Part shown: one piece after another, positions 1,408-51,493 of the stretch
Layout: each line of letters starts with the position of its first letter
Numbering within the stretch: the stretch's first letter is position 1
Source: Candidatus Magasanikiibacteriota bacterium
GTDB taxonomy: Bacteria; Patescibacteriota; Patescibacteriia; Magasanikbacterales; UBA922
Direction: 5' to 3'
Assembly (NCBI GenBank): GCA_016193335.1
Contig: JACPSK010000004.1
Span: 1 to 55,305 of the forward strand
Length of the DNA: 55,305 bases
Program-made: the position numbers and the translations under genes
The notes under the pieces: model-generated
The model's database searches: none
The model's input: the letters and a program-made list of their open reading frames with translations, nothing else
Told to the model about the DNA's origin: nothing

Positions 1408-1574
1408 ATTAAAATTAAAAATTAACATTTAACGATTGGCAATTAACTCGTTCCCGAAAGAAGTTAATGGTTGATGGTGAAATGTTAAGATTGTTACCAA
1501 AGAGCTGACTGATCATTACAATTCAATCGTGGAAAAATTGCAAAAGCAAAGAAGCACTTTTCAGTGCTTCTGTA

Positions 1575-4983
<3,409 letters not shown>

Positions 4984-5033
4984 GAAGCACTGAGCAGTGC
5001 TTTGCAATGCAATTAAAATTAAAAGAGACAGTA

Positions 5034-16031: not shown

Positions 16032-16085
16032 CCTCGAATTTTGAACAAGCCGGTATGTAATGGCGAGGGCATACATAAAATATAT

Positions 16086-19000
16086 ATGTCTCAATTCATA
16101 GATATCCAACGCATGAAGGAATTGTACGATCGGATGCGCGCTGAGCTTTCTTCTCTGCGCGGTTGTTTGGGGCGGCCTCTTCTTTTGTCTGAAAAGATTT
16201 TGTACACCCATTTTTATGATAAGGCAATCTCAGCCGATCTGATAGAACGCGGGAAAACCGAGCTTCGCTTGAAACCGGACCGCGTGGTGATGCAAGACGC
16301 CACCGCGCAAATGACTCTGCTCCAGTTTATGAGCGCCGGAATGGATAGCGTGCTTACTCCGTCTTCGCTACATTGCGATCATCTGATTCGCGCCCGCGAT
16401 GGAGCGGCAGAAGACATGGAACGGGCCATGCAAGAAAATAAAGAAGTATACGCCTTCTTATCTTCGGCATGCCAAAAATACGGTATTGATTTTTGGGAAC
16501 CAGGTTCAGGGATTATTCATCAGGTTAATTTGGAGCATTACGCGTATCCGGGCGCTTTGTTTGTAGGGACCGATTCCCATACCCCCAATGTGGGAGGCCT
16601 TGCCTTGTTGGCCGTTGGCGTTGGCGGTGCGGAAGCCGTGGATCCTATGACAGGCCAGGCCTGGACTCTTCGCGCGCCCAAACATGTGGGAGTGTTTTTG
16701 AAAGGGAATTGCTCCGGCTGGACTTCACCAAAAGATATTATATTGAAAGTTTGTTCTCTCATGACCGTAAAAGGCGGTACAGGGAAAATTTTGGAATACT
16801 TTGGAGAAGGAGCCCGATCCCTGAGCTGCACGGGCAAAGCTACCATTTGCAATATGGGCGCTGAACTGGGAGCCACGACTTCAATTTTTTCTTATGATGA
16901 ACAGATGTCAGAATATCTCAGAGCGACAGGAAGAGACGATGTGGCAGATCTGGCCGAGTCTTACGCGGATCTTTTGTCGGGTGATCCCGAAGTGTATGAA
17001 AATCCGGCCCTATATTTTGATGAAGTTATTGAAATAGATCTGAACGCTCTTGAACCTGGCTTGACCGGGCCAGACACCCCAGACGCGTATCATCCGGTTT
17101 CCAAGCTAAAGGGTTTAGCGGAACATTGTCAGATACCGAATACTATTGACGTCTGTCTGGTTGGAAGCTGTACCAATTCATCGTATGAAGATATAAGGAG
17201 AGTGGCCGAACTTTGTGATTTTGCCGACCGGAAAGGACTGAAATTGCGTTCCCGTTTTATGCTTACCCCTGGTTCGAGACAGATAGAAGAAACGATGAAA
17301 CGCGATGGTTATGTTGCCATCTTTGAAAAAGTAGGAGCGACGATTTTGAGCAATGCCTGCGGACCCTGCGTGGGTCAATGGGACAGAAATGACCTTCCGA
17401 AAGAACAAAAAAGCGTGGTAGTTTCCAGTTTTAATAGGAATTTTAAACGGCGCAATGACGGAAGAGCAGAAACCTACGCCTTTGTCGCGAGTCCGGAAAT
17501 CACCACCGCGCTGGCTTTTGCAGGCAGACTCGATTTTAATCCTTTGGAAGATTCTCTCGAAAATGAAGCAGGGGAAGCAATTCGTTTTGAGATAAAAACA
17601 ACTCAAAGTCTGCCCACGGTCGGTTTTGCCGCTACAGAGCGAGATGGCTTTGTGAAACCTTCGGAAGATCCTCGTTCATTGAAGGTAGAGGTAGGTCCAG
17701 ACAGCGACAGGATTCAGCTTCTCGAAGCTTTTAATGTGTGGAATCTTGAAAAAGATTTTACGGATTTGGTGGTTTTGGGTAAGGCGAAAGGAAAGTGCAC
17801 TACAGATCATATTTCTCCGGCCGGAGTGTGGTTTAAATATAGAGGACATCTCGATAATATCAGCAACAATTTATTTATTGGGGTCAATAACGCATTTTGT
17901 CCGGACGAAGGTAAGGGACATTATATAGAAAGCGGAAGAACTGATGAATTGAATAAAATTGCTCGGCGCTATAAGGAACAGAAAATTGGCTGGATTTTTG
18001 TGGCAGATGAAAATTATGGCGAAGGTTCAAGCCGAGAACACGCGGCCATGGAGCCTCGCTATCTTGGCTGCAGGGCCATCATAGCCAAAAGTTTTGCCCG
18101 CATTGCTGAGACTAATCTTAAAAAACAAGGATTACTTGCCCTCCAACTCAAAAATGCCAATGACTACGAAAGTATCCAGGAAAAAGACAAGATTTCCATT
18201 ATAGGTCTTTCCGAACTTGCTCCTGGCAGAGATATTATTGTGGAATTGAACCATTCAGACGGCAGCACAGATTTGATTTCCTGCGCGCATTCATTGAGTT
18301 TGGAGCAGATTGCCTGGTTTTACGCGGGTTCGGCGCTCAATGACGCAGGGCAGAAGCTTAAAAAAGCCTCTGTCGGTGCATCTGTTCCAAAAGAGACTTC
18401 CGCATTCGCGGAATTCAAAAAAATAAAAGTTCAGAATCCCATTGTGGAAATAGATGGCGATGAGATGGCGCGGGTTATCTGGCAGATGATAAAGGAGCGG
18501 CTTATTTTGCCTTATCTTGATATTGATATTAGATATTTTGATTTGCATATAAAAAATAGAGAGCGGACTGATGACCGCGTGACCGGTGAAGCGGCAGAAG
18601 CGATTAAGACATATAAGGTTGGCATCAAATGCGCGACTATTACTCCGAATAAGGCGCGCGTGGAAGAGTATACACTCAAGAAAGAATATAAATCGCCGAA
18701 TGGCACTATTCGCAATACGCTTGGCGGCACGGTATTTCGCGCGCCCATCGTTATTAAGAATATACCGAGACTGGTACCTGCTTGGCAACGCCCTATCGTG
18801 GTTGCCCGTCACGCGCACGCGGATCAGTACAAAGCTCTTGAGATGAATATCGATATTCCAGGCAAGCTGAGCATGAAATTCGCGGGAGCGGATACTTCGC
18901 TTCGCGAAGAGTCTCTGTATGAATACAAAACTCCGGGCATCGCGATTGGCATGTACAATACATTGGAATCTATAGAAGATTTCGCGCGCAGTTGCTTTCA

Positions 19001-19646
19001 ATATGGTCTTTTGATGAAGTACCCGGTGTATTTTAGCGCCAAAGAAACCATTTTAAAAATATATGATACCGCGTTCAGAGATATATTTCAGAACATTTTC
19101 GAAATTGAATTTAAGGAACGCTTTCTCGCGGCCGGCATATTCTATGATTACAAACTGATTGACGACATGGTGGCTCGGGTTCTCAAAATGGAAGGTGGTT
19201 TTGTCTGGGCCCTCAAGAACTATGACGGAGACGTTCAGTCTGACATGGTGGCCCAAGGTTTTGGTTCTTTGGGGCTCATGACTTCTGTGCTCATGTGTTC
19301 TGATGGCAAGACCATAGAAACCGAAGCGGCTCATGGCACGGTAACCCGCCATTATCAATTGCATAAAGAGGGGAAGCAGACGAGCACCAACCCTATGGCG
19401 AGTATTTTTGCGTGGACCCGCGGGCTCGCTCATAGGGGGAAACTGGATGAAAATCCGCGTTTGATTAGCTTTTCGGAAACGCTTGAGCGTGTTTGCGTGG
19501 AGACTGTTGAAAGCGGCTGTATGACTCAAGATCTGGCACGAGCTGTCCATGCCACAGAAGATCCGCCGGAAGGATCTTGGCTTAGCACTGAAGAATTTTT
19601 TTCAGAAATTGAAAAAAGGTTCGAGCAAGAAATTCAAAGCATATAA
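16086..19646 (+). CDS. fusion protein: mitochondrial-type aconitase (N, to ~18365) + type-II homodimeric NADP isocitrate dehydrogenase (C, from ~18417)
   Basis: The N part has [44 protein letters not shown] and [11 protein letters not shown], and ends [12 protein letters not shown] like the aconitase C-terminus. A linker [17 protein letters not shown] follows. The C part then has [51 protein letters not shown] and [16 protein letters not shown], as in IDH1/2-type IDH. It is a single uninterrupted frame. ATG 16086 is preferred over TTG 16041. Confidence 0.85.
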
Positions 19647-19708
19647 AGTTTTTTGATTTTTGGAGTGTTCATTTTTTCCGGGCGAACTGGCCGGGCTTCG
19701 ATTCTCTT

Positions 19709-19736
19709 AAAAATTATAAATTATAAATTAAAAATT
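19709..19736 (+). repeat. A/T-rich intergenic motif copy (aaaaattataaattataaattaaaaatt)
   Basis: Ends 7 nt before ATG 19743. Confidence 0.6.
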
Positions 19737-19742
19737 CACGCT

Positions 19743-20909
19743 ATGAATCTCTACGAATTCGAGGGGAAACATTTTTTTGAAAAGAGCGGTATTGCGGTTC
19801 CTAAAGGAATTATGGTATCGCGTGGCATGGACTATGCCACTGCGTATCAGAATTTGGGATTGACCGAAGTCGTGATAAAGGCGCAAGTTCTTTCCGGCAA
19901 AAGAGGCAAAAATAATGGCATACGTTTTTGCTCTTCGGCCGAGGGGGTGAATCGTGTCTGTACAGAACTCTTCGATTCGGAGCTGAATGGTCAATACATT
20001 TCGGCTCTGCGAATTGAAGAAAAATTGGACATAGCTGAGGAACATTACATGTCTATAAGCTATGATACCAATTCCAAACAGCCGGTTTTCATATACAGCA
20101 AAGAAGGAGGAATGGATATAGAAGACGTGGATGATGGGAACATCGACACATACATGCTGGATATCCGAGAGGATATGCTTTCGGTGCAAGCAAATAAAAA
20201 TGATTTCCCTTTAGAAATCGCCTTGAAATTATGGAATTGTTTTAAACAAAATGATGCTCGAATGGTGGAAATAAATCCTTTGGTAAAGACAAGCGGGGGT
20301 TTATGGATAGCGGCTGACGCCAAAATGGCTTTGGATGATGATGCTTTTTATCGTCATGAGGAATGGAGGAATCTCGAGCCTCGGAGCATGATGGGCAGGC
20401 CTGTCACGGATAGGGAAATTGAAGTTAAAAAAATTGATGAAGGGGAAAAATATTATCAGGGTACAGCGGGCAAATATATAGAAATGAACGGAGACATAGC
20501 GATATTGTTTTCCGGTGGCGGCGCGAGTATCGCGAACATGGATGCCTTGATAAAGGCTGGTTTGAAACCGGCAAATTATACTGAGTACTCCGGAAACCCG
20601 CCGAGAGAAAAAGTTTTTGAACTGACGAAAATTGTGCTCTCTAAACCCGGATTGCGGGGGTTGTGGATAGCCGGCGGTGTGGCCAATTTTACCAATATAA
20701 AAGAAACATTCAATGGGATTGTTGACGCCTTTGACGAACTCAAGCCGTCCTATCCGATTGTCGTGCGTCGGGCAGGGCCTTATGAAAGCGAAGGAATGGA
20801 ATTGATGCGAGACTGCGCGGCCAGGAACAATTTGAACATTCGTTTTTTTGGCAAAGAAACATCTATGAGCGAAACCGCGGGAGTCTTGGCGGGTATGTTG
20901 AATAATTGA
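19743..20909 (+). CDS. ATP-grasp SucC-like subunit; probable citryl-CoA synthetase large subunit (or succinyl-CoA synthetase beta)
   Basis: MNLYEFEGKHFFEKSGIAVPKG resembles the SucC/AclB N-terminus. The product is ~388 aa from ATG 19743. Gene context includes a citryl-CoA-lyase-like gene. Confidence 0.7.
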   Translation: MNLYEFEGKHFFEKSGIAVPKGIMVSRGMDYATAYQNLGLTEVVIKAQVLSGKRGKNNGIRFCSSAEGVNRVCTELFDSELNGQYISALRIEEKLDIAEEHYMSISYDTNSKQPVFIYSKEGGMDIEDVDDGNIDTYMLDIREDMLSVQANKNDFPLEIALKLWNCFKQNDARMVEINPLVKTSGGLWIAADAKMALDDDAFYRHEEWRNLEPRSMMGRPVTDREIEVKKIDEGEKYYQGTAGKYIEMNGDIAILFSGGGASIANMDALIKAGLKPANYTEYSGNPPREKVFELTKIVLSKPGLRGLWIAGGVANFTNIKETFNGIVDAFDELKPSYPIVVRRAGPYESEGMELMRDCAARNNLNIRFFGKETSMSETAGVLAGMLNN

Positions 20910-20993
20910 AAATGTAAATCGAAAACGAGGGTTTATATTTTTAAGATCCCCACCAGGGGATGATAGCAGAACTTGATTAACAAAAATTAAACT

Positions 20994-21890
20994 ATGGCTA
21001 TACTTATAGACAAAAACAGCAAAGTACTCATTCAGGGCATCACGGGCAAAGAAGGCCAAAAAGCCGCTCAGGCCATGATTGCGTATCACACTAATGTGGT
21101 GGGTGGGGTGCGTCCTGGCAAAGCCGGAGAAATGGTGGAAGGCAGACCGGTTTTCAATACAGTAGGCGAGGCTCTGGAAGCTGTCCCCGATATTTCGGTA
21201 AGTGCGATTTATGTGCCCCCTTTCGCCGCAAAAGCCGCTATGATGGAGGCTATAGACGCGGGTTTGCCACAAATCAATGTAATTGTAGAGCGTATCCCAA
21301 TCCAAGATACTGCCTACTGTTTGGCCGCGGCAAGAGAAAAAAATATCAGAATTATTGGCCCCAGTTCATTGGGTTATATCGCGCCCGGCCTTGGTAGGAT
21401 CGGCGTGGTGGGAGGGCCCGAGCAATTGGTGAATGAGATTTATCAGCCCGGCGGTATTGGGATTATATCTCGTTCCGGAGGCATGACCAATGAAGTCAGC
21501 TGGCAGATTCGAAAAGCCGGTTTGGGACAGAGCACGGCCGTGCACGCGGGCGGTGATTTGCTTATGGGTATGACCTATACTGATTTGCTCAAGGATTTTG
21601 AAAAGGATGAACAAACAAAAGCCGTGGTTATTTTCGGTGAACACGGAGGTAGTTATGAATTTGAGATCGTGGAATTGATTCAAGATAAGGGATATACCAA
21701 ACCCCTTGCCATATATATAGGAGGTAAATTCGCGCAGGTTCTGCCCGAGGGTATGAATATAGGCCATGCGGGGGCTATAGTAGAGCGGGGAAAGGGCGCG
21801 GTAGAGAAAGAAGCGGCTTTGAAGTCCGCCGGCGTCATGATCGCCGAACGCTATGAAGATTTGGTCGAATTGGTGAAGCCCCATGTTTAG
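20994..21890 (+). CDS. SucD-like CoA-binding subunit; probable citryl-CoA synthetase small subunit
   Basis: ILIDKNSKVLIQGITGKEG, IISRSGGMTNE and the phosphohistidine loop NIGHAGAIV. Confidence 0.75.
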   Translation: MAILIDKNSKVLIQGITGKEGQKAAQAMIAYHTNVVGGVRPGKAGEMVEGRPVFNTVGEALEAVPDISVSAIYVPPFAAKAAMMEAIDAGLPQINVIVERIPIQDTAYCLAAAREKNIRIIGPSSLGYIAPGLGRIGVVGGPEQLVNEIYQPGGIGIISRSGGMTNEVSWQIRKAGLGQSTAVHAGGDLLMGMTYTDLLKDFEKDEQTKAVVIFGEHGGSYEFEIVELIQDKGYTKPLAIYIGGKFAQVLPEGMNIGHAGAIVERGKGAVEKEAALKSAGVMIAERYEDLVELVKPHV

Positions 21891-21942
21891 CTGAAGTATT
21901 TTTTGTCCATTTGGAATATTCACTTTAACCATACATTAATAT

Positions 21943-22668
21943 ATGAGATTTAAAACATCCATCACGCGCATTGAAGAAGGCAAAGAAATTATACGCGGGC
22001 ATGAGCTTAGAGATTTGGTTCGAGAGAACAATTTTTCAGAGTCCATTTATTTGATTCTGAAAGGGAAACTTCCAAACAAACAAGAGGCCCGCATGTTTGA
22101 CGCCATTTTGACTTCGGTTATAGACCATGGCCCCGGAGTGGCATCGGCTATCGCGGCTCGAGTTTCAGCGAGCGCGAAAAATAGCATGCATACGTCTCTC
22201 GCCGCCGGTATTTTGAGTTTTGGGGACCGGCATGGCGTAGCTTCTGGGGCTGCCATGAAATTTTTTTATGATCATATTAAAGACTCGGATTTGGAAGCTA
22301 CTCTCAAGAGTATGAAAGAGAAAAAAGAATACGTTCCGGGTTTGGGTCATAAACTATTTCAAAAAGAAGATCCACGCTCGACGACACTCTTTGAAATCGC
22401 CAAAGAAACAGGAATCTTCGGGTCTTATTGTGTTTTTGCTCTAGCTGTATCTGAGATTTCAAACAGACTCTCTTCAAAAATGCTTCCGCTCAATGTTGAC
22501 GGAGCCATAGCGGCCATACTCTGCGACATGGGCTTTGATTATAGACTGGGAAAAGGTATATTTATGATAGGAAGAGTTCCTGGTCTTATCGCTCATATTT
22601 ATGAAGAAACGCTTAATGATGAAGGCATACGGCGCATTCCAGAGGAACAAATTGATTACACGGATTGA
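21943..22668 (+). CDS. short citrate-synthase-family protein; probable citryl-CoA lyase
   Basis: 241 aa. DHGPGVAS, SFGDRHGVASG and PGLGHKLFQKEDPRS correspond to the citrate-synthase catalytic core (GxGHxx...DPR). Confidence 0.7.
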   Translation: MRFKTSITRIEEGKEIIRGHELRDLVRENNFSESIYLILKGKLPNKQEARMFDAILTSVIDHGPGVASAIAARVSASAKNSMHTSLAAGILSFGDRHGVASGAAMKFFYDHIKDSDLEATLKSMKEKKEYVPGLGHKLFQKEDPRSTTLFEIAKETGIFGSYCVFALAVSEISNRLSSKMLPLNVDGAIAAILCDMGFDYRLGKGIFMIGRVPGLIAHIYEETLNDEGIRRIPEEQIDYTD

Positions 22669-25480: not shown

Positions 25481-25556
25481 TGGTGCGCCTGGGTGGATTC
25501 GAACCACCGACTCCGACGTTATAAGCGTCGTACTCTAACCGCTGAGTTACAGGCGC
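25481..25556 (-). tRNA. tRNA-Ile with genomically encoded UAU anticodon
   Basis: Manual cloverleaf: gcgcctg-ta-actc-agcggtta-gagt-a-cgacg-ctTATaa-cgtcg-gagtc-ggtgg-ttcgaat-ccacc-caggcgc-a-cca. The body resembles bacterial tRNA-Ile. Confidence 0.8.
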
Positions 25557-37852: not shown

Positions 37853-37881
37853 TTGACTTTTTTTCTCTTGTAATCTATAGT
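37853..37881 (+). promoter_or_regulatory. promoter TTGACT-17-TATAGT of the aromatic operon leader
   Basis: ttgact at 37853-37858, a 17-nt spacer, tatagt at 37876-37881. The ATG lies 9 nt further downstream. Confidence 0.6.
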
Positions 37882-37890
37882 ATTTGCATT

Positions 37891-37941
37891 ATGCAAGGTA
37901 CAAGCTCAAGATCTTACTTTTATTTTTACTTTACCTCTTAG
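37891..37941 (+). CDS. 16-codon Tyr/Phe-rich leader peptide MQGTSSRSYFYFYFTS
   Basis: atg caa ggt aca agc tca aga tct tac ttt tat ttt tac ttt acc tct tag. It sits between a promoter and an intrinsic terminator, directly upstream of the Phe/Tyr biosynthesis operon. Confidence 0.6.
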   Translation: MQGTSSRSYFYFYFTS

Positions 37942-37994
37942 CCGAGGCCTTGTTGCTGTATCCCGCGAAAGAGCGGAAAATAAATTACAACATC

Positions 37995-38022
37995 AAGAAC
38001 CTCGGTAAGAGGTTCTTTTTTT
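37995..38022 (+). terminator. attenuator terminator upstream of aroA
   Basis: aagaacctc-ggtaa-gaggttctt plus a T run (9-bp stem). Its 5' arm cctcgg (38000-38005) can alternatively pair with ccgagg (37942-37947), which lies immediately after the leader stop codon. Confidence 0.7.
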
Positions 38023-38050
38023 CTATAACATTGATTGTACAATTCTACAT

Positions 38051-39340
38051 ATGGAATTGATCGTAGAAACAACTAATCGTCTCAAAGGCTCTGTAACTCC
38101 GCCTTCATCAAAATCGCACAGCGTCCGTGCTGTTCTTTTGGCGAGCCTTTGCAGAGGGACGAGCAAAATAAGGAATCTCCTCAAAAGCGATGATACGGAA
38201 GCTGCTTTGGACATAGCAAAAGCACTTGGGGCCAACATTGAAGAAAGAAAAGACATGCTTTTGCTTAATGGTTTTGGCCTTCCTCTTAATCCGAAAGACA
38301 GACTATTTTCCAGGGATTCGGGTATCAGTACAAAATTTACATTACCTCTTCTCGGTTTCCAGAAAGACGGAAACAAAACTATTATTCTCGACGCCGGGGA
38401 GCAAATGCGCAGGCGTCCCATTATGCCCTTGGTAGAGACTTTGAATAAACTCGGCATGAATATCGTTCCTGCAAGGTCCGATTGTCCTTTTCCTTTGGCT
38501 GTTTCAGGAATTTTGCGGGGAGGTATTGCGGAAGTGGATGGAAAAAGTTCACAGTATATTTCCGCGCTTTTACTGGCGCTTCCTCTCGCGCCCGCGGATT
38601 CGGTTATGAGGGTTAAAAACTTGCAAGAACGGCCTTACGTGGATATGACGCTTTCTTGGCTGGATCGTTTGGGAGTTTTTTATAAACATTCACACTCAGG
38701 AGATACAGATCTGTATGAAATTCCCGGTCAGCAAGCCTATCTGCCCTTTGAGATCAGTATTCCCGGAGATTTTTCCTCAGCCTCGTATACCATCGCGGCA
38801 GCCGCCCTTATCCATGGCGATGTGCTGGTTAAGGGATTAGACATGAATGATCCGCAGAGCGACAAACGACTAATTGAGATTTTGCGGGATATGGGCGCGG
38901 ATATACAAAAGCTTGCTGAAGGATTGCAGATCCGCGGCAGAGGGACTTTGCGCGGTATGACGATTGACGCGAATGATATTCCTGATATGCTTCCGACCCT
39001 TGCTGTTGTCGGCGCATGCGCAGAGGGCGAAACGCGTATCGTGAATGTGGCCCACGCGCGTATTAAAGAAACCGATAGGATTCATTCCATGTACGAGGGC
39101 TTGAAGGCGATGGGCGCGGATATAGAAGAACTCCCGGATGGTTTGCTTGTACGGCAGAGCCGTTTGACCGGCGCCCGGGTTCATGGCTGTCATGACCACC
39201 GCAGCGTGATGGCGCTTGCGCTTGCGGGCATGATCGCAGAGGGCCAAACGGTCATCGACACCGCTGAATCGGTTGGGAAAACCTATCCCGGATTTGTGGA
39301 AGATATGAAGGGATTAGGAGGGGTGATGGCTCTCGGCTGA
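38051..39340 (+). CDS. aroA: 3-phosphoshikimate 1-carboxyvinyltransferase (EPSP synthase)
   Basis: 429 aa; PPSKSHSVRAVLLASL, LGNSGT-like region, and KETDRI. Confidence 0.93.
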   Translation: MELIVETTNRLKGSVTPPSSKSHSVRAVLLASLCRGTSKIRNLLKSDDTEAALDIAKALGANIEERKDMLLLNGFGLPLNPKDRLFSRDSGISTKFTLPLLGFQKDGNKTIILDAGEQMRRRPIMPLVETLNKLGMNIVPARSDCPFPLAVSGILRGGIAEVDGKSSQYISALLLALPLAPADSVMRVKNLQERPYVDMTLSWLDRLGVFYKHSHSGDTDLYEIPGQQAYLPFEISIPGDFSSASYTIAAAALIHGDVLVKGLDMNDPQSDKRLIEILRDMGADIQKLAEGLQIRGRGTLRGMTIDANDIPDMLPTLAVVGACAEGETRIVNVAHARIKETDRIHSMYEGLKAMGADIEELPDGLLVRQSRLTGARVHGCHDHRSVMALALAGMIAEGQTVIDTAESVGKTYPGFVEDMKGLGGVMALG

Positions 39341-48991: not shown

Positions 48992-49576
48992 ATGGACTTG
49001 GCACGAGGGCTTAAAGAAATTCGACGTCTGAGGGACGCCGGAGTGCTCCTGGACATTGAGGGCCATCGTCTTGACCAGAGCGCGGGTGTGGTAATGGTCT
49101 GTTGCGCGGACGGCGACCAGATGCATGATGTCTACACGACCCAGGCGGAGATGCAACGTGAACAGCGCGGAGAACCGCGCGTTCATCTTTTGTCCTGGAA
49201 TGGCGGGGCTTTGAGGCTTTTGGCCGATTCGCCCACGAATCGTCGTATTACGACAGCCCAAGAATTCTTGGACGAGATCAGGGACGCCTCGGTTCTGAAG
49301 AGTATCCCGGTTGTGGCGCTTTACGCTCACTTTCCTTGCGGAAAGGTGAAAGATACTCGCTTGGAGATTCAGCAAGTCTTTGCGGGCCTGATTGCCGCGA
49401 AGCAACGTCTCAAGCGGGAAATTCCCGGGGTCAGAGTAGCTTGCTTTTTTCATGTGGACTATCCAGATGTAGAAGCAGGCGAAACAGGATCTGGCCCTCG
49501 CAAGCGCACCTATTTCTTGTCCGTTGCTCGGTACATGGAGCTATACGACGCTAGGAGTGTTGGCTGTGTCGCGTAG
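48992..49576 (+). CDS. hypothetical protein (194 aa), GC-rich relative to neighbours
   Basis: The ORF has a purine-rich RBS (aggagagag). I recognise no family. Confidence 0.5.
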   Translation: MDLARGLKEIRRLRDAGVLLDIEGHRLDQSAGVVMVCCADGDQMHDVYTTQAEMQREQRGEPRVHLLSWNGGALRLLADSPTNRRITTAQEFLDEIRDASVLKSIPVVALYAHFPCGKVKDTRLEIQQVFAGLIAAKQRLKREIPGVRVACFFHVDYPDVEAGETGSGPRKRTYFLSVARYMELYDARSVGCVA

Positions 49577-49699
49577 CACAAGCCCCCATCGCTCCCTGAG
49601 GAACAAGCTCCTCGGGGAGTGTGGGGGAAGAAACAGTTTGAGAGAATTTTGGATGTCTTTTTGACAGACTATTCTGACCATGATAGTCTATAAATACAT

Positions 49700-49744
49700 A
49701 TGAAAAAGATTTTGAATAATAATTTGAATCCAAACAGCGTGTAG
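49700..49744 (+). CDS. candidate 14-codon Asn-rich leader peptide MKKILNNNLNPNSV
   Basis: atg aaa aag att ttg aat aat aat ttg aat cca aac agc gtg tag. It is preceded by TTGACA (49661)-17-TAGTCT (49684-49689), overlapping TATAAAT. Mutually exclusive hairpins follow it. Confidence 0.3.
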   Translation: MKKILNNNLNPNSV

Positions 49745-49765
49745 CGCGGTTTTTTTGCATAAGCT

Positions 49766-49792
49766 AAAAAAGCCCGCGCCCGCGGGTTTTTT
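49766..49792. terminator. intrinsic (bidirectional) terminator 25 nt upstream of tRNA-Asn
   Basis: aaaaaag-cccgc-gccc-gcggg-tttttt. Its 5' arm ccgcgc (49774-49779) can instead pair with gcgcgg (49744-49749), and the A-run can pair with the T-run at 49751-49756. Confidence 0.6.
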
Positions 49793-49816
49793 GTTCCTTC
49801 CAGATTCTATAAGTAT

Positions 49817-49891
49817 TCCCCTGTAGTTCAATGGTAGAACACCTCGCTGTTAACGAGGACGTTGTAGGTTCGAGTCCTACCGGGGGAGCCA
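49817..49891 (+). tRNA. tRNA-Asn (anticodon GUU), CCA encoded
   Basis: tcccctg-ta-gttc-aatggta-gaac-a-cctcg-ctGTTaa-cgagg-acgtt-gtagg-ttcgagt-cctac-cggggga-g-cca. Confidence 0.9.
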
Positions 49892-51493
49892 TATGGGATG
49901 AGCAGAGCCAAAAGCTCTGCTTTTCTCTTTATTTACGGGCTTATTCAGATGTTCGAATATTTTATTTTGGTCTATTTTCTCTCCCATAAGCTCGCCGACT
50001 CGGTCAAAGATGATTTTAAACGCTTTGTGGAATGAAACCTCGACTTTTTTGCCGTTTAGCGTGGTGTTCGAAAAAATCAGGGACAAAAGCAGTTTCTTGT
50101 CGTCCACCATCTCCTGTTTGTCCCGGTTGATGTAAATTTTCCATGCCTTCTTGGCCACTTGCAGGACTGTCTCTCCCATTTCGTAGTACTTCAGGTTGGC
50201 ATCCTTGTGCTTATTGAGGCTGTCCAGTATCTGTTCTTGCTCGACTTTGTACTGGTCGTACTTCTTTTTGTAAAATTCCTCGCTGATTTTCTCGTCGATC
50301 TTGTCATCGTATATCTTATCCAGCCGTTGCGTGGCGACTTCATACCGGCGGTTGAGCTCGGCCGTGGACTTGTCGCGGAATTCTATCTCCTCGCTATGGC
50401 TTTCTTTGAGGGCTTCCTGAACCCATGAAAGCATGCTTTCTACGGCCTGCTCACCTTTGGGATTTAAGGTATTGATGGTTTCTATCAACTGCGTATCCAA
50501 GACCTCCTGCCGGACAAACTCCCGTTGTTGGCAGTTTTTGTAATGGTTGCAGTGACCGTACCAGTGGCCTCGTTGTATTTCCCAAGTTATCCGGCCCTTG
50601 CATTCGTTGCATCGGAAGACATTTTTAAAGAACGGATTATGCTTGAAGTATCTCGGCGTACCGTTGGCGTGCATTATCTCCTGGCACCGGTCGAATAATT
50701 CCTTGGTGATAAGCGGCTCGTGTCCGCCTTTGGTCAGCCGGTTATTCCAGCGATTCATGCCAAAGTAGAACGGATCGCCTAAGAGCTGATGGACTCGCGA
50801 GTGGCTCACTTTATTTCCTCCTCGGGACCGCATACCCTGCTCGTGCATGACATCCGCAAGTTTTTTAGTTGAATAGCGGTTGCTGGCATAAAGATCAAAC
50901 ATTTTCTTGACTAGCGGTGCTTTGTCTGGATCAGGCACATGGATTTTGTGCCCTTTCTCGCCGACGGTTTTATATCCAAGCGGCGGTTTGGCCGGAAGCC
51001 AGCCTTGCGAGAGTTTTTCTTTCTGTCCTTTTCTTACGTTTTCGGAAAGCAGACGGATGTAGTATTCGGCTGTGGCAACTTTCACTCGCCACATAAACCA
51101 CTCATGCGACTTGGAGTCTTTGTGGAGCGTACAGCTTTCTTTGACGAGATGGATCGTGTGCTTTTCATCGGCCAGTATCCACTCGTCTATGACCGGCACA
51201 TCGGCGAAGTTTCTGGTGAGACGGTCAGTTGTTTCCACAAAGACCGTATTGATCTTGGCCTTGGTTACGAACGCCATCATTTCGTGGAATATCTTGCGCT
51301 GGATTTTTCCGGCGGCCGATTCCTGAATGGCAAACACTTTTACGAGCTCATAGCCATTCCGGTCGGCATAGTCCCGTAAAAGTTTCTCCTGGGCCGGTAG
51401 CGAGTAGCCGGTGTCCTCCTGATCCTTGGAAGACACCCGGGCGTAGCCTACGGCTTGCATCGATTGATTTTCTTGATTCATTGTCATAGTCAT
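49877..51493 (-). CDS. large serine recombinase (phage-integrase-type)
   Basis: Resolvase catalytic motif VGYARVSSKDQ, a recombinase domain, the zinc ribbon CNECKGR...HCNHYKNC, and a long coiled-coil C-terminal region; 538 aa. Confidence 0.9.
   Translation of the reverse strand: MTMTMNQENQSMQAVGYARVSSKDQEDTGYSLPAQEKLLRDYADRNGYELVKVFAIQESAAGKIQRKIFHEMMAFVTKAKINTVFVETTDRLTRNFADVPVIDEWILADEKHTIHLVKESCTLHKDSKSHEWFMWRVKVATAEYYIRLLSENVRKGQKEKLSQGWLPAKPPLGYKTVGEKGHKIHVPDPDKAPLVKKMFDLYASNRYSTKKLADVMHEQGMRSRGGNKVSHSRVHQLLGDPFYFGMNRWNNRLTKGGHEPLITKELFDRCQEIMHANGTPRYFKHNPFFKNVFRCNECKGRITWEIQRGHWYGHCNHYKNCQQREFVRQEVLDTQLIETINTLNPKGEQAVESMLSWVQEALKESHSEEIEFRDKSTAELNRRYEVATQRLDKIYDDKIDEKISEEFYKKKYDQYKVEQEQILDSLNKHKDANLKYYEMGETVLQVAKKAWKIYINRDKQEMVDDKKLLLSLIFSNTTLNGKKVEVSFHKAFKIIFDRVGELMGEKIDQNKIFEHLNKPVNKEKSRAFGSAHPIWLPR

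Follow-up and report, generated by a model that had tools for sequence, protein, structure and literature searches.

The locus under study raises the question of why a very short open reading frame rich in asparagine codons, preceded by a promoter and followed by a terminator-like hairpin, stands directly upstream of a tRNA-Asn gene. Individual bacterial tRNA genes are thought to be controlled mainly by global signals such as growth rate and the stringent response, and a preliminary description of this DNA had suggested a leader-peptide attenuator of the tRNA gene. In this study, the window (the whole stretch of 55,305 nt that was analysed) was investigated together with related loci, and all coordinates below refer to its forward strand. 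We consider it quite likely that the unit is a transcription attenuator operated by a leaderless leader peptide, in which the regulated gene would be tRNA-Asn itself, under negative feedback by the supply of Asn-tRNA(Asn). This reading, and with it the original suggestion, is supported by comparison across 19 loci and by structural inference.

With reference to the window, the leader promoter can be read directly from the sequence as a -35 hexamer TTGACA (49661..49666) and, after a 17-nt spacer, a -10 hexamer TAGTCT (49684..49689). The latter is weak, with three of six matches to TATAAT (T1, A2 and T6 are kept), and this window promoter was not called by the consensus promoter scan. A TATAAAT at 49689-49695 overlaps TAGTCT; if its TATAAA (49689-94) were the real -10 element, transcription would start after the ATG at 49700. 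This ATG lies 10 nt past TAGTCT, and no GGAG-type Shine-Dalgarno (SD) sequence was found before it. Judged from promoter spacing only, transcription would start at about 49696-49699 and yield a leaderless or near-leaderless mRNA. The leader ORF, MKKILNNNLNPNSV with its TAG stop, was likewise read directly and occupies 49700..49744, the stop being 49742-49744. It opens with the codons atg aaa aag att ttg, continues with aat aat aat (49715-49723), ttg, aat (49727-49729), cca and aac (49733-49735), and ends with agc gtg tag, so that 5 of its 14 codons specify Asn. It is the sole ATG mini-ORF with at least four Asn in seven codons in the 55-kb window. The promoter with its 17-nt spacer and overlapping TATAAAT, the SD-less ATG about 10 nt further on, the five Asn codons and the overlap of TAG with the gcgcgg+T7 arm discussed next are all present as the preliminary description gave them.

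Folding and a best-partner search placed the antiterminator 5' arm, gcgcgg+T7, at 49744..49756. Its first base is the last base of the TAG stop, so that a ribosome at TAG would cover it, and the window Asn codons begin 29, 26, 23, 17 and 11 nt upstream of it. Across the whole window leader, this arm is the best partner of the terminator 5' arm (shuffle p = 0.000). The 3' arm, A6-g-c-ccgcgc (49766..49779, from the fold), overlaps the terminator 5' arm at 49773-49779; its position had been given correctly before, but one C of its sequence had been missed, which forms a bulge in the antiterminator. The intrinsic terminator, serving as the putative attenuator, was located by folding at 49767..49792 and consists of the core cccgc-gccc-gcggg (49773-49786), an A/U-pair extension and T6 (49787-49792). 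The antiterminator (49742-49781) folds at -17.3 kcal/mol (z -3.6) and the terminator (49766-49793) at -15.6 kcal/mol (z -4.0), and none of 200 shuffles equalled either of them. Since the two structures share 49773-49779, they are mutually exclusive, as expected from the earlier claim that the pairing uses up the terminator 5' arm. The consensus scan listed the terminator hairpin on the minus strand only, and the hairpin looks bidirectional because A6 and T6 runs flank it. A candidate 1:2 protector hairpin at 49732-49752, in which the ORF end would pair with the arm as in the classical trp leader, is weak and not significant (-6.0 kcal/mol, z -0.8, equalled by 45 of 200 shuffles). With no convincing 1:2 protector, an untranslated leader should therefore read through by default, unlike in the trp attenuator.

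The presumed target, tRNA-Asn with anticodon GTT, occupies 49817..49891 (ARAGORN; Rfam RF00005, 70.3 bits). The terminator hairpin stands before this gene as previously described, except that 24 nt and not 25 nt separate the T-run from the tRNA. A hairpin with a T-rich tail follows the tRNA at 49895..49927 (scan 49900-49922, 9 pairs; fold -18.6 kcal/mol) and is the likely end of the leader-tRNA unit; homologous hairpins follow the tRNA in L050 and L029. On the other side, a strong hairpin without a T-run (49583..49627, from the fold of 49577-49895) lies just past the stop of the upstream 194-aa gene; this is probably where the preceding aro-trpS operon ends, and the hairpin lies outside the attenuator. 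The next gene after tRNA-Asn in the window is on the opposite strand. No AsnRS, GatCAB or AsnB was found among the approximately 38 window ORFs scanned against Pfam, and an exact-protein look-up of the window recombinase gave no match on record.

Conservation of the Asn-rich mini-ORF and of the pairing in relatives had been proposed as a check, and its outcome was strongly positive, as the leader architecture was observed in 18 further lineages, giving 19 distinct tRNA-Asn loci with that of the window. These further lineages are all Patescibacteria (CPR), and those that bear a name belong to the Magasanikbacteria or Komeilibacteria. When genomes were scanned with the tRNA 5' half, six species came up and five of them carry the leader unit; a metagenome scan provided 11 more distinct loci with it. 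Again, an independent route via TrpRS homologues led to three loci, two with tRNA-Asn nearby and both of these with the leader unit, and the tRNAs of these two do not fit the tRNA search pattern. Each of the 19 loci has a promoter closely followed by an ATG that lacks an SD, a run of Asn codons in the frame of this ATG, and a stop that coincides with the antiterminator arm or lies beside it. The runs comprise 3-8 codons in the 18 other loci, always in frame with the promoter-proximal ATG, and the peptides (e.g., MKYIFVNNNNNNN..., MMKRFIQNNNNNNNN..., MKMKIVNNNNNNNSQ) cannot be aligned and have nothing in common but the Asn run. Since the median pairwise identity of the leaders is 62%, it is the architecture that is conserved and not the sequence.

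The promoters follow the same plan. At least 10 orthologous loci have a perfect TTGACA in the corresponding position, and -10 boxes of TATAGT, TATATT, TATTAT, TAAAGT, TAAACT or TATACT occur at the same spacing. In most loci the pattern is TTGACA, 16-18 nt, TAnnnT, 6-11 nt and ATG, without SD, with the exception of L013, where 28 nt separate the -10 box from the ATG. The ortholog terminators are GC hairpins of -8 to -21 kcal/mol followed by a T-run, and they end 5-26 nt before tRNA-Asn in 15 of the 17 fully analysed loci. MAFFT/RNAalifold on 15 terminators gave a weak consensus of only four pairs (-1 kcal/mol), all four with compensatory changes. MAFFT cannot register stems of different length, and the terminators were judged by per-sequence folds and shuffles instead of by alignment. 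A different promoter of tRNA-Asn had been named beforehand as an observation that would speak against the attenuator, and none was detected: in the window, as in 16 of 17 loci, the stretch from terminator to tRNA shows no promoter signal, and a sigma-70-like site is missing from the 75 nt that precede the gene. The leader unit is absent from the related tRNA-Asn loci L014, L017 and L044 and degenerate in L029, and in L012, L021 and L036 it lies about 110-290 nt from the intact tRNA. L008 was tried as an "empty" integration site. It is 100% identical to L016 over 192 nt from 49860 onward, and L016 is a different species with unrelated flanks, so that L008, which may have been joined wrongly during assembly across the tRNA 5' half that the two share, was left out of the evidence as a possible chimera.

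The geometry of the switch recurs as well. When the entire leader was searched for the 14-nt segment that pairs best with the terminator 5' arm, 12 of 15 loci gave one whose first base falls between -12 and +3 relative to the stop, and the shuffle p is <=0.04 in 14 of the 15. In 14 of 15 loci, the arm as defined by hand begins between -10 and +6 nt relative to the stop codon; in the remaining one, L015, it precedes the stop by 25 nt. Almost every Asn codon has its first base 10-36 nt ahead of the hand-defined arm. Moreover, the association is specific to asparagine. Of the 18 Asn-rich ATG mini-ORFs in 295 kb of tRNA-Asn loci, 16 share the strand of tRNA-Asn and precede it by no more than 250 nt, a zone which makes up about 1.6% of the scanned sequence and in which about 0.3 would be expected. 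For the other 19 amino acids, the zone upstream of tRNA-Asn holds zero or one mini-ORF rich in the amino acid concerned, without enrichment. About 100 other tRNA genes, few of them from Patescibacteria chromosomes, have no cognate-rich leaders; they include tRNA arrays with the same D-arm, the sole yield of a viral contig scan, which served as negative controls. The one exception, a Lys-rich mini-ORF upstream of tRNA-Lys in L023, appears to be due to chance.

These observations bear on four other explanations of the locus. That AAT-rich DNA merely happens to lie beside the terminator of the upstream gene or of the convergent recombinase gene is hardly credible, even though the intergenic DNA of the genome is A/T-rich and the hairpin, with its A6 and T6 flanks, would terminate minus-strand transcription too. 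The unit is present in 19 lineages whose flanking genes differ, its antiterminator arm keeps its position at the stop codon, both window hairpins beat all 200 shuffles, and the enrichment of 16 out of 18 stands against about 0.3 expected; descent from one recently transferred segment is argued against by the median identity reported above. Two caveats of the preliminary description lose their ground here: the fortuitous AAT-rich string is countered by the position and Asn specificity of the 16 mini-ORFs, and a terminator serving the upstream gene by the facts that upstream genes differ between loci, that a promoter intervenes and that the window's upstream gene has its own hairpin. It is improbable, to a lesser degree, that promoter, mini-ORF and terminator form a separate small unit, a small RNA or micropeptide gene, beside an independently transcribed tRNA-Asn. 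A terminated RNA of about 95 nt would be expected in any case, and in Sinorhizobium an attenuator RNA and a leader peptide, rnTrpL and peTrpL, can reportedly act in trans (PMC7968998, PMC7298713). The 110-290 nt between leader unit and intact tRNA in L012, L021 and L036 also fit a separate unit, but the long gaps of L012 and L021 contain decayed tRNA-Asn fragments, which point to a later rearrangement. Against such a unit also stand the lack of a promoter-like site from terminator to tRNA in 16 of 17 loci, the gap of 5-26 nt in most of them and the fact that the peptides are alike in the Asn run only; and it leaves the match of Asn codons with tRNA-Asn, the alternative pairing and the stop-codon geometry unexplained.

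About equally improbable is an RNA switch independent of translation, in which the choice between terminator and antiterminator would depend on direct contact of the AAU/AAC repeats with a protein or, in a T-box-like manner, with the anticodon GUU of tRNA-Asn. The repeats do complement this anticodon, direct sensing of tRNAs occurs in T-box leaders, and translation of the leader ORF is a prediction here. Nevertheless, at gathering score only the tRNA passes among Rfam families; the T-box family RF00230 has no match in the window, and relaxing the threshold to E <= 10 over 49560-49960 brought up none either; Stem I, the specifier loop and the T-box sequence are likewise missing. The run is in frame in every locus with an ATG 6-11 nt past the -10 box, it is the stop codon and not the repeat that sits at the antiterminator arm, and between L025 and L031 the length of the Asn run differs by whole codons. 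An attenuator controlling a downstream protein-coding gene, with the tRNA as a mere passenger, is less probable still. A same-strand gene follows the tRNA without a clear terminator in L013, L015, L025 (gatC), L037 and L041, which would suit that arrangement, but the downstream genes are unrelated between loci (ABC transporter-like, glnA, gatC, NUDIX, P-type ATPase-like and recombinases, of which the transporter, glnA and ATPase labels come from reading translations, not from a family search). A hairpin with a T-run comes directly after the tRNA in 7 of the 17 loci checked, and the next gene in the window is on the opposite strand. The only constant downstream partner is tRNA-Asn, with no shared biosynthetic enzyme, transporter or synthetase gene.

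We thus return to the leader-peptide attenuator of tRNA-Asn, whose start site, ORF translation, and direction and size of response follow by inference from the sequence. In this mechanism, transcription would start a few bases before the ATG at 49700 and ribosomes would translate the leader from an mRNA that is leaderless or nearly so. With ample Asn-tRNA(Asn), the ribosome would pass the Asn codons to TAG and cover gcgcggUUU from 49744 onward; no antiterminator could then form, the terminator at 49773-49792 would fold, and the polymerase would stop 24 nt before the tRNA, leaving a transcript of about 95 nt. A shortage of Asn-tRNA(Asn) would make the ribosome stall at aat aat aat or the following aat, 17-29 nt upstream of the arm, and the free arm would pair with 49766-49779 and sequester the terminator 5' arm. 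The polymerase would then read into tRNA-Asn, and RNase P would release the tRNA. The outcome would be a negative feedback in which the supply of charged tRNA-Asn sets the transcription of the tRNA-Asn gene, and these bacteria probably set their tRNA-Asn level by sensing the speed of ribosomes on the tRNA's own codons.

As to the physiological reason, one possibility is that tRNA-Asn serves as the scaffold for tRNA-dependent Asn synthesis by a non-discriminating AspRS and GatCAB, and if this is true, tRNA-Asn would be the equivalent of a biosynthetic gene. More tRNA would not obviously be helpful if free Asn were limiting and AsnRS were used, a consideration that speaks against an attenuator. 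Such an attenuator suggests that asparagine or Asn-tRNA supply is a particular bottleneck for these bacteria. On balance, we incline to the broader view that a group of Patescibacteria (Magasanikbacteria, Komeilibacteria and relatives) controls tRNA-Asn by a leaderless leader peptide consisting largely of Asn codons, so that the tRNA would measure its own charged pool via the ribosome and correct its own transcription. It would be the first tRNA gene known to be attenuated in this way, maybe because tRNA-Asn is the scaffold of Asn synthesis (AspRS/GatCAB) in these reduced genomes.

The mechanism is of a known kind, and what is new is its target, a tRNA gene; in agreement with the preliminary description, our literature search yielded no example of a tRNA gene preceded by a leader peptide, nor of such a gene under a leader of its own codons. 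If true, gene-specific feedback read out by the ribosome on the codons of the tRNA concerned would add a new logic to the regulation of tRNA supply, and leader-peptide attenuation would extend beyond protein-coding targets. The mechanism would also be among the first concrete cis-regulatory ones in the Candidate Phyla Radiation, whose members are very poor in transcription factors and have yet to be grown on their own. The leader unit is small (about 130 nt plus the tRNA), and its design makes a simple pattern with which to look for controls of this type on other tRNAs.

Among known systems, the classical leader-peptide attenuators of E. coli (trp, his, pheA, thr, leu and ilv) likewise combine a short ORF, in which codons for one amino acid follow each other, with mutually exclusive antiterminator and terminator hairpins. 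The position of the ribosome selects between the two, stalling leading to read-through and arrival at the stop to termination. The Asn leader differs from them in its target, which is the tRNA decoding the regulatory codons and not a biosynthetic enzyme or a synthetase, as well as in its lack of an SD, its probably leaderless start and the absence of a convincing 1:2 protector hairpin. Rfam leader models stayed below gathering score in 49560-49960 (Leu_leader RF00512, 23.2 against 50 bits; Thr_leader RF00506, 18.0 against 55 bits; Trp_leader RF00513, 16.1 against 41), and the resemblance to these families is limited to the terminator-like part. Leader-peptide attenuators have reportedly also been predicted in Actinobacteria. 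T-box riboswitches are likewise cis-acting terminator/antiterminator switches that report the aminoacylation of one tRNA and adjust its supply genes, but their contact with uncharged tRNA is direct, needs no ribosome and is made by Stem I, a specifier codon and the T-box bulge, all of which the Asn leader lacks, and to our knowledge no T-box regulates a tRNA gene. A further comparison is with the leaderless leader peptides of Deinococcus deserti. There, the transcription start coincides with or adjoins the AUG of a very short ORF in which one amino acid is abundant, and the gene that follows was predicted to be attenuated (PMC4007540). Deinococcus belongs to a different phylum, and the start of the Asn leader is placed by promoter spacing only.

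Another parallel lies in the window itself, which has only two codon-biased units of a promoter and a mini-ORF with a close ATG, the Asn leader and an aromatic (Tyr/Phe) leader upstream of the aro operon (37853-38024), whose layout of promoter, ATG, TAG and hairpin the Asn leader mirrors, as had been claimed. It consists of TTGACT, 17 nt, TATAGT, 9 nt, ATG, the peptide MQGTSSRSYFYFYFTS and a TAG which abuts the antiterminator arm gccgagg, followed by the terminator gaacctc-ggtaa-gaggttc-T7, and it folds at -25.3 kcal/mol as antiterminator and at -13 kcal/mol as terminator. The design is identical to that of the Asn leader, with a target that is conventional, namely shikimate/aromatic amino-acid genes and trpS. 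The tRNA-Asn attenuator becomes more credible because the aromatic leader shows that this organism uses the device.

The Asn-rich unit at 49661-49891 was read directly from the sequence, and this confirmed the observation behind the preliminary description, which had proposed a leader-peptide attenuator of tRNA-Asn; all of its elements were found where they had been placed. On the plus strand, a -35 hexamer TTGACA (49661-66) is followed after 17 nt by the -10 hexamer TAGTCT (49684-89) and, 10 nt past the latter, by an ATG (49700) without a Shine-Dalgarno (SD) sequence, which opens a leader ORF of 14 codons, MKKILNNNLNPNSV, containing aat aat aat, aat and aac and ending at TAG (49742-44). The G of this stop codon is the first base of the antiterminator 5' arm gcgcgg+T7 (49744-56), hereafter the arm, and the Asn codons begin 29, 26, 23, 17 and 11 nt upstream of it. 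Its pairing with 49766-79 was present as described, except that this 3' arm, A6-g-c-ccgcgc, carries one extra, bulged C that had been overlooked. The terminator cccgc-gccc-gcggg-T6 (49773-92, plus strand) precedes tRNA-Asn(GTT) (49817-49891, plus strand), and the gap between T-run and tRNA, first given as 25 nt, is 24 nt. In isolation, the antiterminator segment folds at -17.3 kcal/mol and the terminator at -15.6 kcal/mol; each beats 200/200 dinucleotide shuffles, and the two structures are mutually exclusive because 49773-49779 is common to both. The weak point of the unit is TAGTCT, with just 3 consensus positions matched, and a consensus promoter scan did not call the window's leader promoter.

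With reference to its setting, the unit sits where a long block of plus-strand genes ends, made up of shikimate/aromatic amino-acid genes, trpS and a gene of 194 aa. This last gene (48992-49576) separates trpS from the Asn leader; its protein matches nothing in Pfam or PHROG, and an identical protein occurs on 12 contigs from several samples. DNA identical to the window is also present in NCBI MAG GCA_964404105.1, the closest TrpRS proteins to that of the window (65-72% identity) carry the name Candidatus Magasanikbacteria, and MAGs named Magasanikbacteria and Komeilibacteria have a tRNA-Asn with the window's tRNA 5' half. The 23S rRNA (1570-4986) measures 3417 nt against a 2925-position model, so that approximately 490 nt are inserted; such insertions are a typical trait of bacteria in the Candidate Phyla Radiation. 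Together, these features place the organism within the Patescibacteria (Candidate Phyla Radiation). We also observed at 16041-22668 a metabolic gene set unusually rich for a Patescibacterium. An aconitase and an isocitrate/isopropylmalate dehydrogenase are fused there in one protein of 1201 aa, and behind it come subunits resembling ATP-citrate lyase (ATP-grasp_2 + Citrate_bind; CoA_binding + Ligase_CoA; Citrate_synt C-terminal domain). At 25481-25556 (minus strand), next to tRNA-Arg(CCG), lies a tRNA-Ile whose TAT anticodon, uncommon in bacteria, is encoded in the genome.

Genomes, one per species, were searched with the 5' half of the window tRNA, leaving the anticodon stem unconstrained. 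Six species matched, and in five of them the unit lies directly upstream of tRNA-Asn, with a TTGACA promoter, an ATG close by, an Asn run within a short ORF and, abutting the tRNA, a GC hairpin and its T-run; the leader peptides are MFYTRNNSNNCNTNV, MKLLNNNNNYNNCP, MMMRKVTNSADNNNNGLTSR, MKYIFVNNNNNNNRPTGGMCLFVE and MKSYTYLNNSNNNYIRTIG. The same tRNA search in metagenome contigs disclosed 11 more distinct loci (e.g. MMKRFIQNNNNNNNNSRLRG, MKKSFRNLNNNNNNNRFIAG, MKYTTANNNYNNNRK). Additionally, a tRNA-independent route through contigs encoding TrpRS homologues gave 3 further loci, two of which have tRNA-Asn downstream of trpS; both carry the Asn leader unit, with the peptides MKMKIVNNNNNNNSQ, which belongs to a complete genome of 1.23 Mb, and MKINRNNNNNCNNYFLE, and their tRNAs fall outside the tRNA search pattern. 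The unit is therefore present in 19 distinct loci, the window included, with a median pairwise identity of 62% in leader DNA and just one pair above 75%; it is the design that is conserved rather than the sequence. The unit is not universal, being missing in three of the related loci fetched for comparison (L014, L017, L044) and degenerate in another (L029).

The preliminary description had itself cautioned that AAT-rich strings could arise by chance and that the terminator could simply serve the upstream gene. As regards chance, we scanned both strands of 295 kb from the 19 Patescibacteria-type loci for ATG mini-ORFs (up to 40 codons, 4 or more Asn within 7 codons), and 16 of the 18 found lie within 250 nt upstream of a tRNA-Asn on the same strand, a zone that makes up approximately 1.6% of the scanned sequence and would be expected to hold approximately 0.3. 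For none of the remaining 19 amino acids does that zone hold more than one cognate-rich mini-ORF. Moreover, the retrieved sequences contain approximately 100 further tRNA genes, including viral tRNA arrays whose tRNA-Asn has the same D-arm, and these lack a cognate-rich mini-ORF upstream, except for a Lys-rich one in locus L023 that is apparently due to chance. As regards the upstream gene, folding revealed a very stable 45-nt hairpin (49583-49627) that immediately follows the stop codon of the 194-aa gene and lacks a T-run; it may act as a terminator lacking a U-tract or affect RNA stability. Since the 194-aa gene has this strong hairpin of its own, the terminator at 49773 appears dispensable for ending the upstream operon.

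Most loci have TTGACA, perfect or nearly so, then 16-18 nt, TAnnnT and 6-11 nt to the ATG, a spacing that places the transcription start at or a few bases from the AUG, so that the leader mRNA would be leaderless. No SD precedes the leader ATG in most loci; ordinary window genes do have one, such as ggagagag ahead of the 194-aa gene. The same leaderless arrangement has been documented for predicted leader peptides of Deinococcus deserti (PMC4007540). In every locus the promoter-proximal ATG and the Asn run share one reading frame, and between the most similar pair, L025 and L031, the run differs by whole codons. When the best partner of the terminator's 5' arm was sought across the whole leader of 15 loci, it proved in 12 to be a 14-nt stretch starting -12 to +3 from the stop codon, and for 14 of the 15 no more than 4% of composition-matched shuffles attained the energy observed. 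The three exceptions reflect a narrow arm definition (L013, L034) or an arm earlier in the ORF (L015); arms defined by folding start -10 to +6 from the stop's first base in 14 of the 15 loci. Nearly all Asn codons start 10-36 nt upstream of these fold-defined arms, every locus has two or more such codons lying no less than 13 nt upstream, and the geometry of L049 and L050 agrees. Judged from sequence, this is the geometry required of a ribosome-position switch, because the arm would be covered by a ribosome whose A site has reached the stop codon and left free by one held in the Asn run.

The terminator stem ends 5-26 nt upstream of the tRNA in 15 of 17 fully analysed loci, and the last 75 nt before the tRNA hold no sigma-70-like site in 16 of the 17; as far as predicted promoters tell, transcription of the tRNA must therefore depend on read-through from the leader promoter. 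Past the tRNA, the genes vary by locus (ABC transporter-like, glnA, gatC, NUDIX, P-type ATPase-like and recombinases, with the gatC, NUDIX and recombinase labels taken from Pfam and the others from reading translations), and a hairpin with T-run follows it in 7 of the 17 loci checked, the window among them. tRNA-Asn is the sole constant partner of the leader.

The tRNA-Asn gene is also bordered by putative mobile DNA, which in the window takes in 49877-51493 and continues at least as far as 55305. On the minus strand, a gene for a large serine recombinase (Resolvase and Recombinase domains, phrog_95 integrase; 49877-51493) runs antisense into the tRNA 3' end, its terminal WLPR being encoded by the strand opposite the acceptor and T stems. 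Related recombinases are likewise placed in L029, where 58 nt across the junction are identical, and in L045, and many same-species contigs end at 49890. From the recombinase position and these contig ends, tRNA-Asn looks like an integration hot spot; no second att copy was found in the window. Decayed tRNA-Asn fragments, probably scars of past integrations, adjoin intact copies in L012 (~160-110 nt upstream), L021 (~60-10 nt upstream) and L049 (5411-5452, a 3'-half remnant ~60 nt past the intact tRNA), and in L012 and L021 the 5' fragment is interrupted by a ~30-nt double-hairpin insert (tccgccagaggcgga tccgcctagggcgga). L008 is identical to the window up to 49859, and its positions 943-1134 (192 nt) then agree with L016 at 100% identity, although L016 is from another species and has unrelated flanks elsewhere, indicating either an assembly chimera via the common tRNA 5' half or shared mobile DNA.

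The best-supported reading of the unit is a leader-peptide transcription attenuator that would close a negative feedback loop on tRNA-Asn. Plentiful Asn-tRNA(Asn) would lead to termination ahead of the tRNA gene, and scarce Asn-tRNA(Asn) to stalling, antitermination and more tRNA-Asn. The trp attenuator has a protector hairpin, whereas the only candidate in the Asn leader (-6.0 kcal/mol) is not significant and not convincing, so that an untranslated leader should read through by default. The 19 loci, the enrichment and the stop-codon geometry provide strong comparative evidence for the attenuator first proposed, and a functional Asn-sensing attenuator of tRNA-Asn is, in our judgment, probable. 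As to why asparagine should be controlled, we infer, as one explanation, that Asn-tRNA(Asn) may be made here by the tRNA-dependent route (non-discriminating AspRS plus GatCAB; reviewed in PMC2330236), in which case tRNA-Asn would be the scaffold of asparagine synthesis. In L025, gatC (PF02686), a tRNA-dependent amidotransferase subunit with its own TATAAT-like box, starts ~37 nt past tRNA-Asn, a single case that bears on this idea. Homeostasis of a single-copy essential tRNA and compensation for tRNA damage are other possible reasons.

Rfam leader models scored 16-23 bits on the Asn leader against thresholds of 41-55, assigning it to no described leader family, and Rfam found no T-box in it. 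The literature searched in full text reports no leader peptide ahead of a tRNA gene, and the attenuator survey of Naville and Gautheret does not mention tRNA genes. The resemblance to an aromatic leader noticed earlier holds, as an identical design of leaderless type was seen at 37853-38024, upstream of the shikimate/aromatic operon (aroA at 38051 through aminotransferase and trpS). It consists of TTGACT-17-TATAGT, 9 nt, ATG (37891), MQGTSSRSYFYFYFTS and TAG (37939-41), with a folded antiterminator gccgagg/cctcggu (-25.3 kcal/mol, z -4.1) and terminator gaacctc-ggtaa-gaggttc-T7 (-13.0 kcal/mol, z -3.9), which suggests that this lineage also applies such a device to a conventional target. The Asn unit would share its mode of action with classical ribosome-mediated attenuators and differ from all described cases, as from the aromatic leader, in its target, a tRNA gene; the mechanism appears to be a known one and the target to be without precedent, and the unit is conserved across a group of Patescibacteria.
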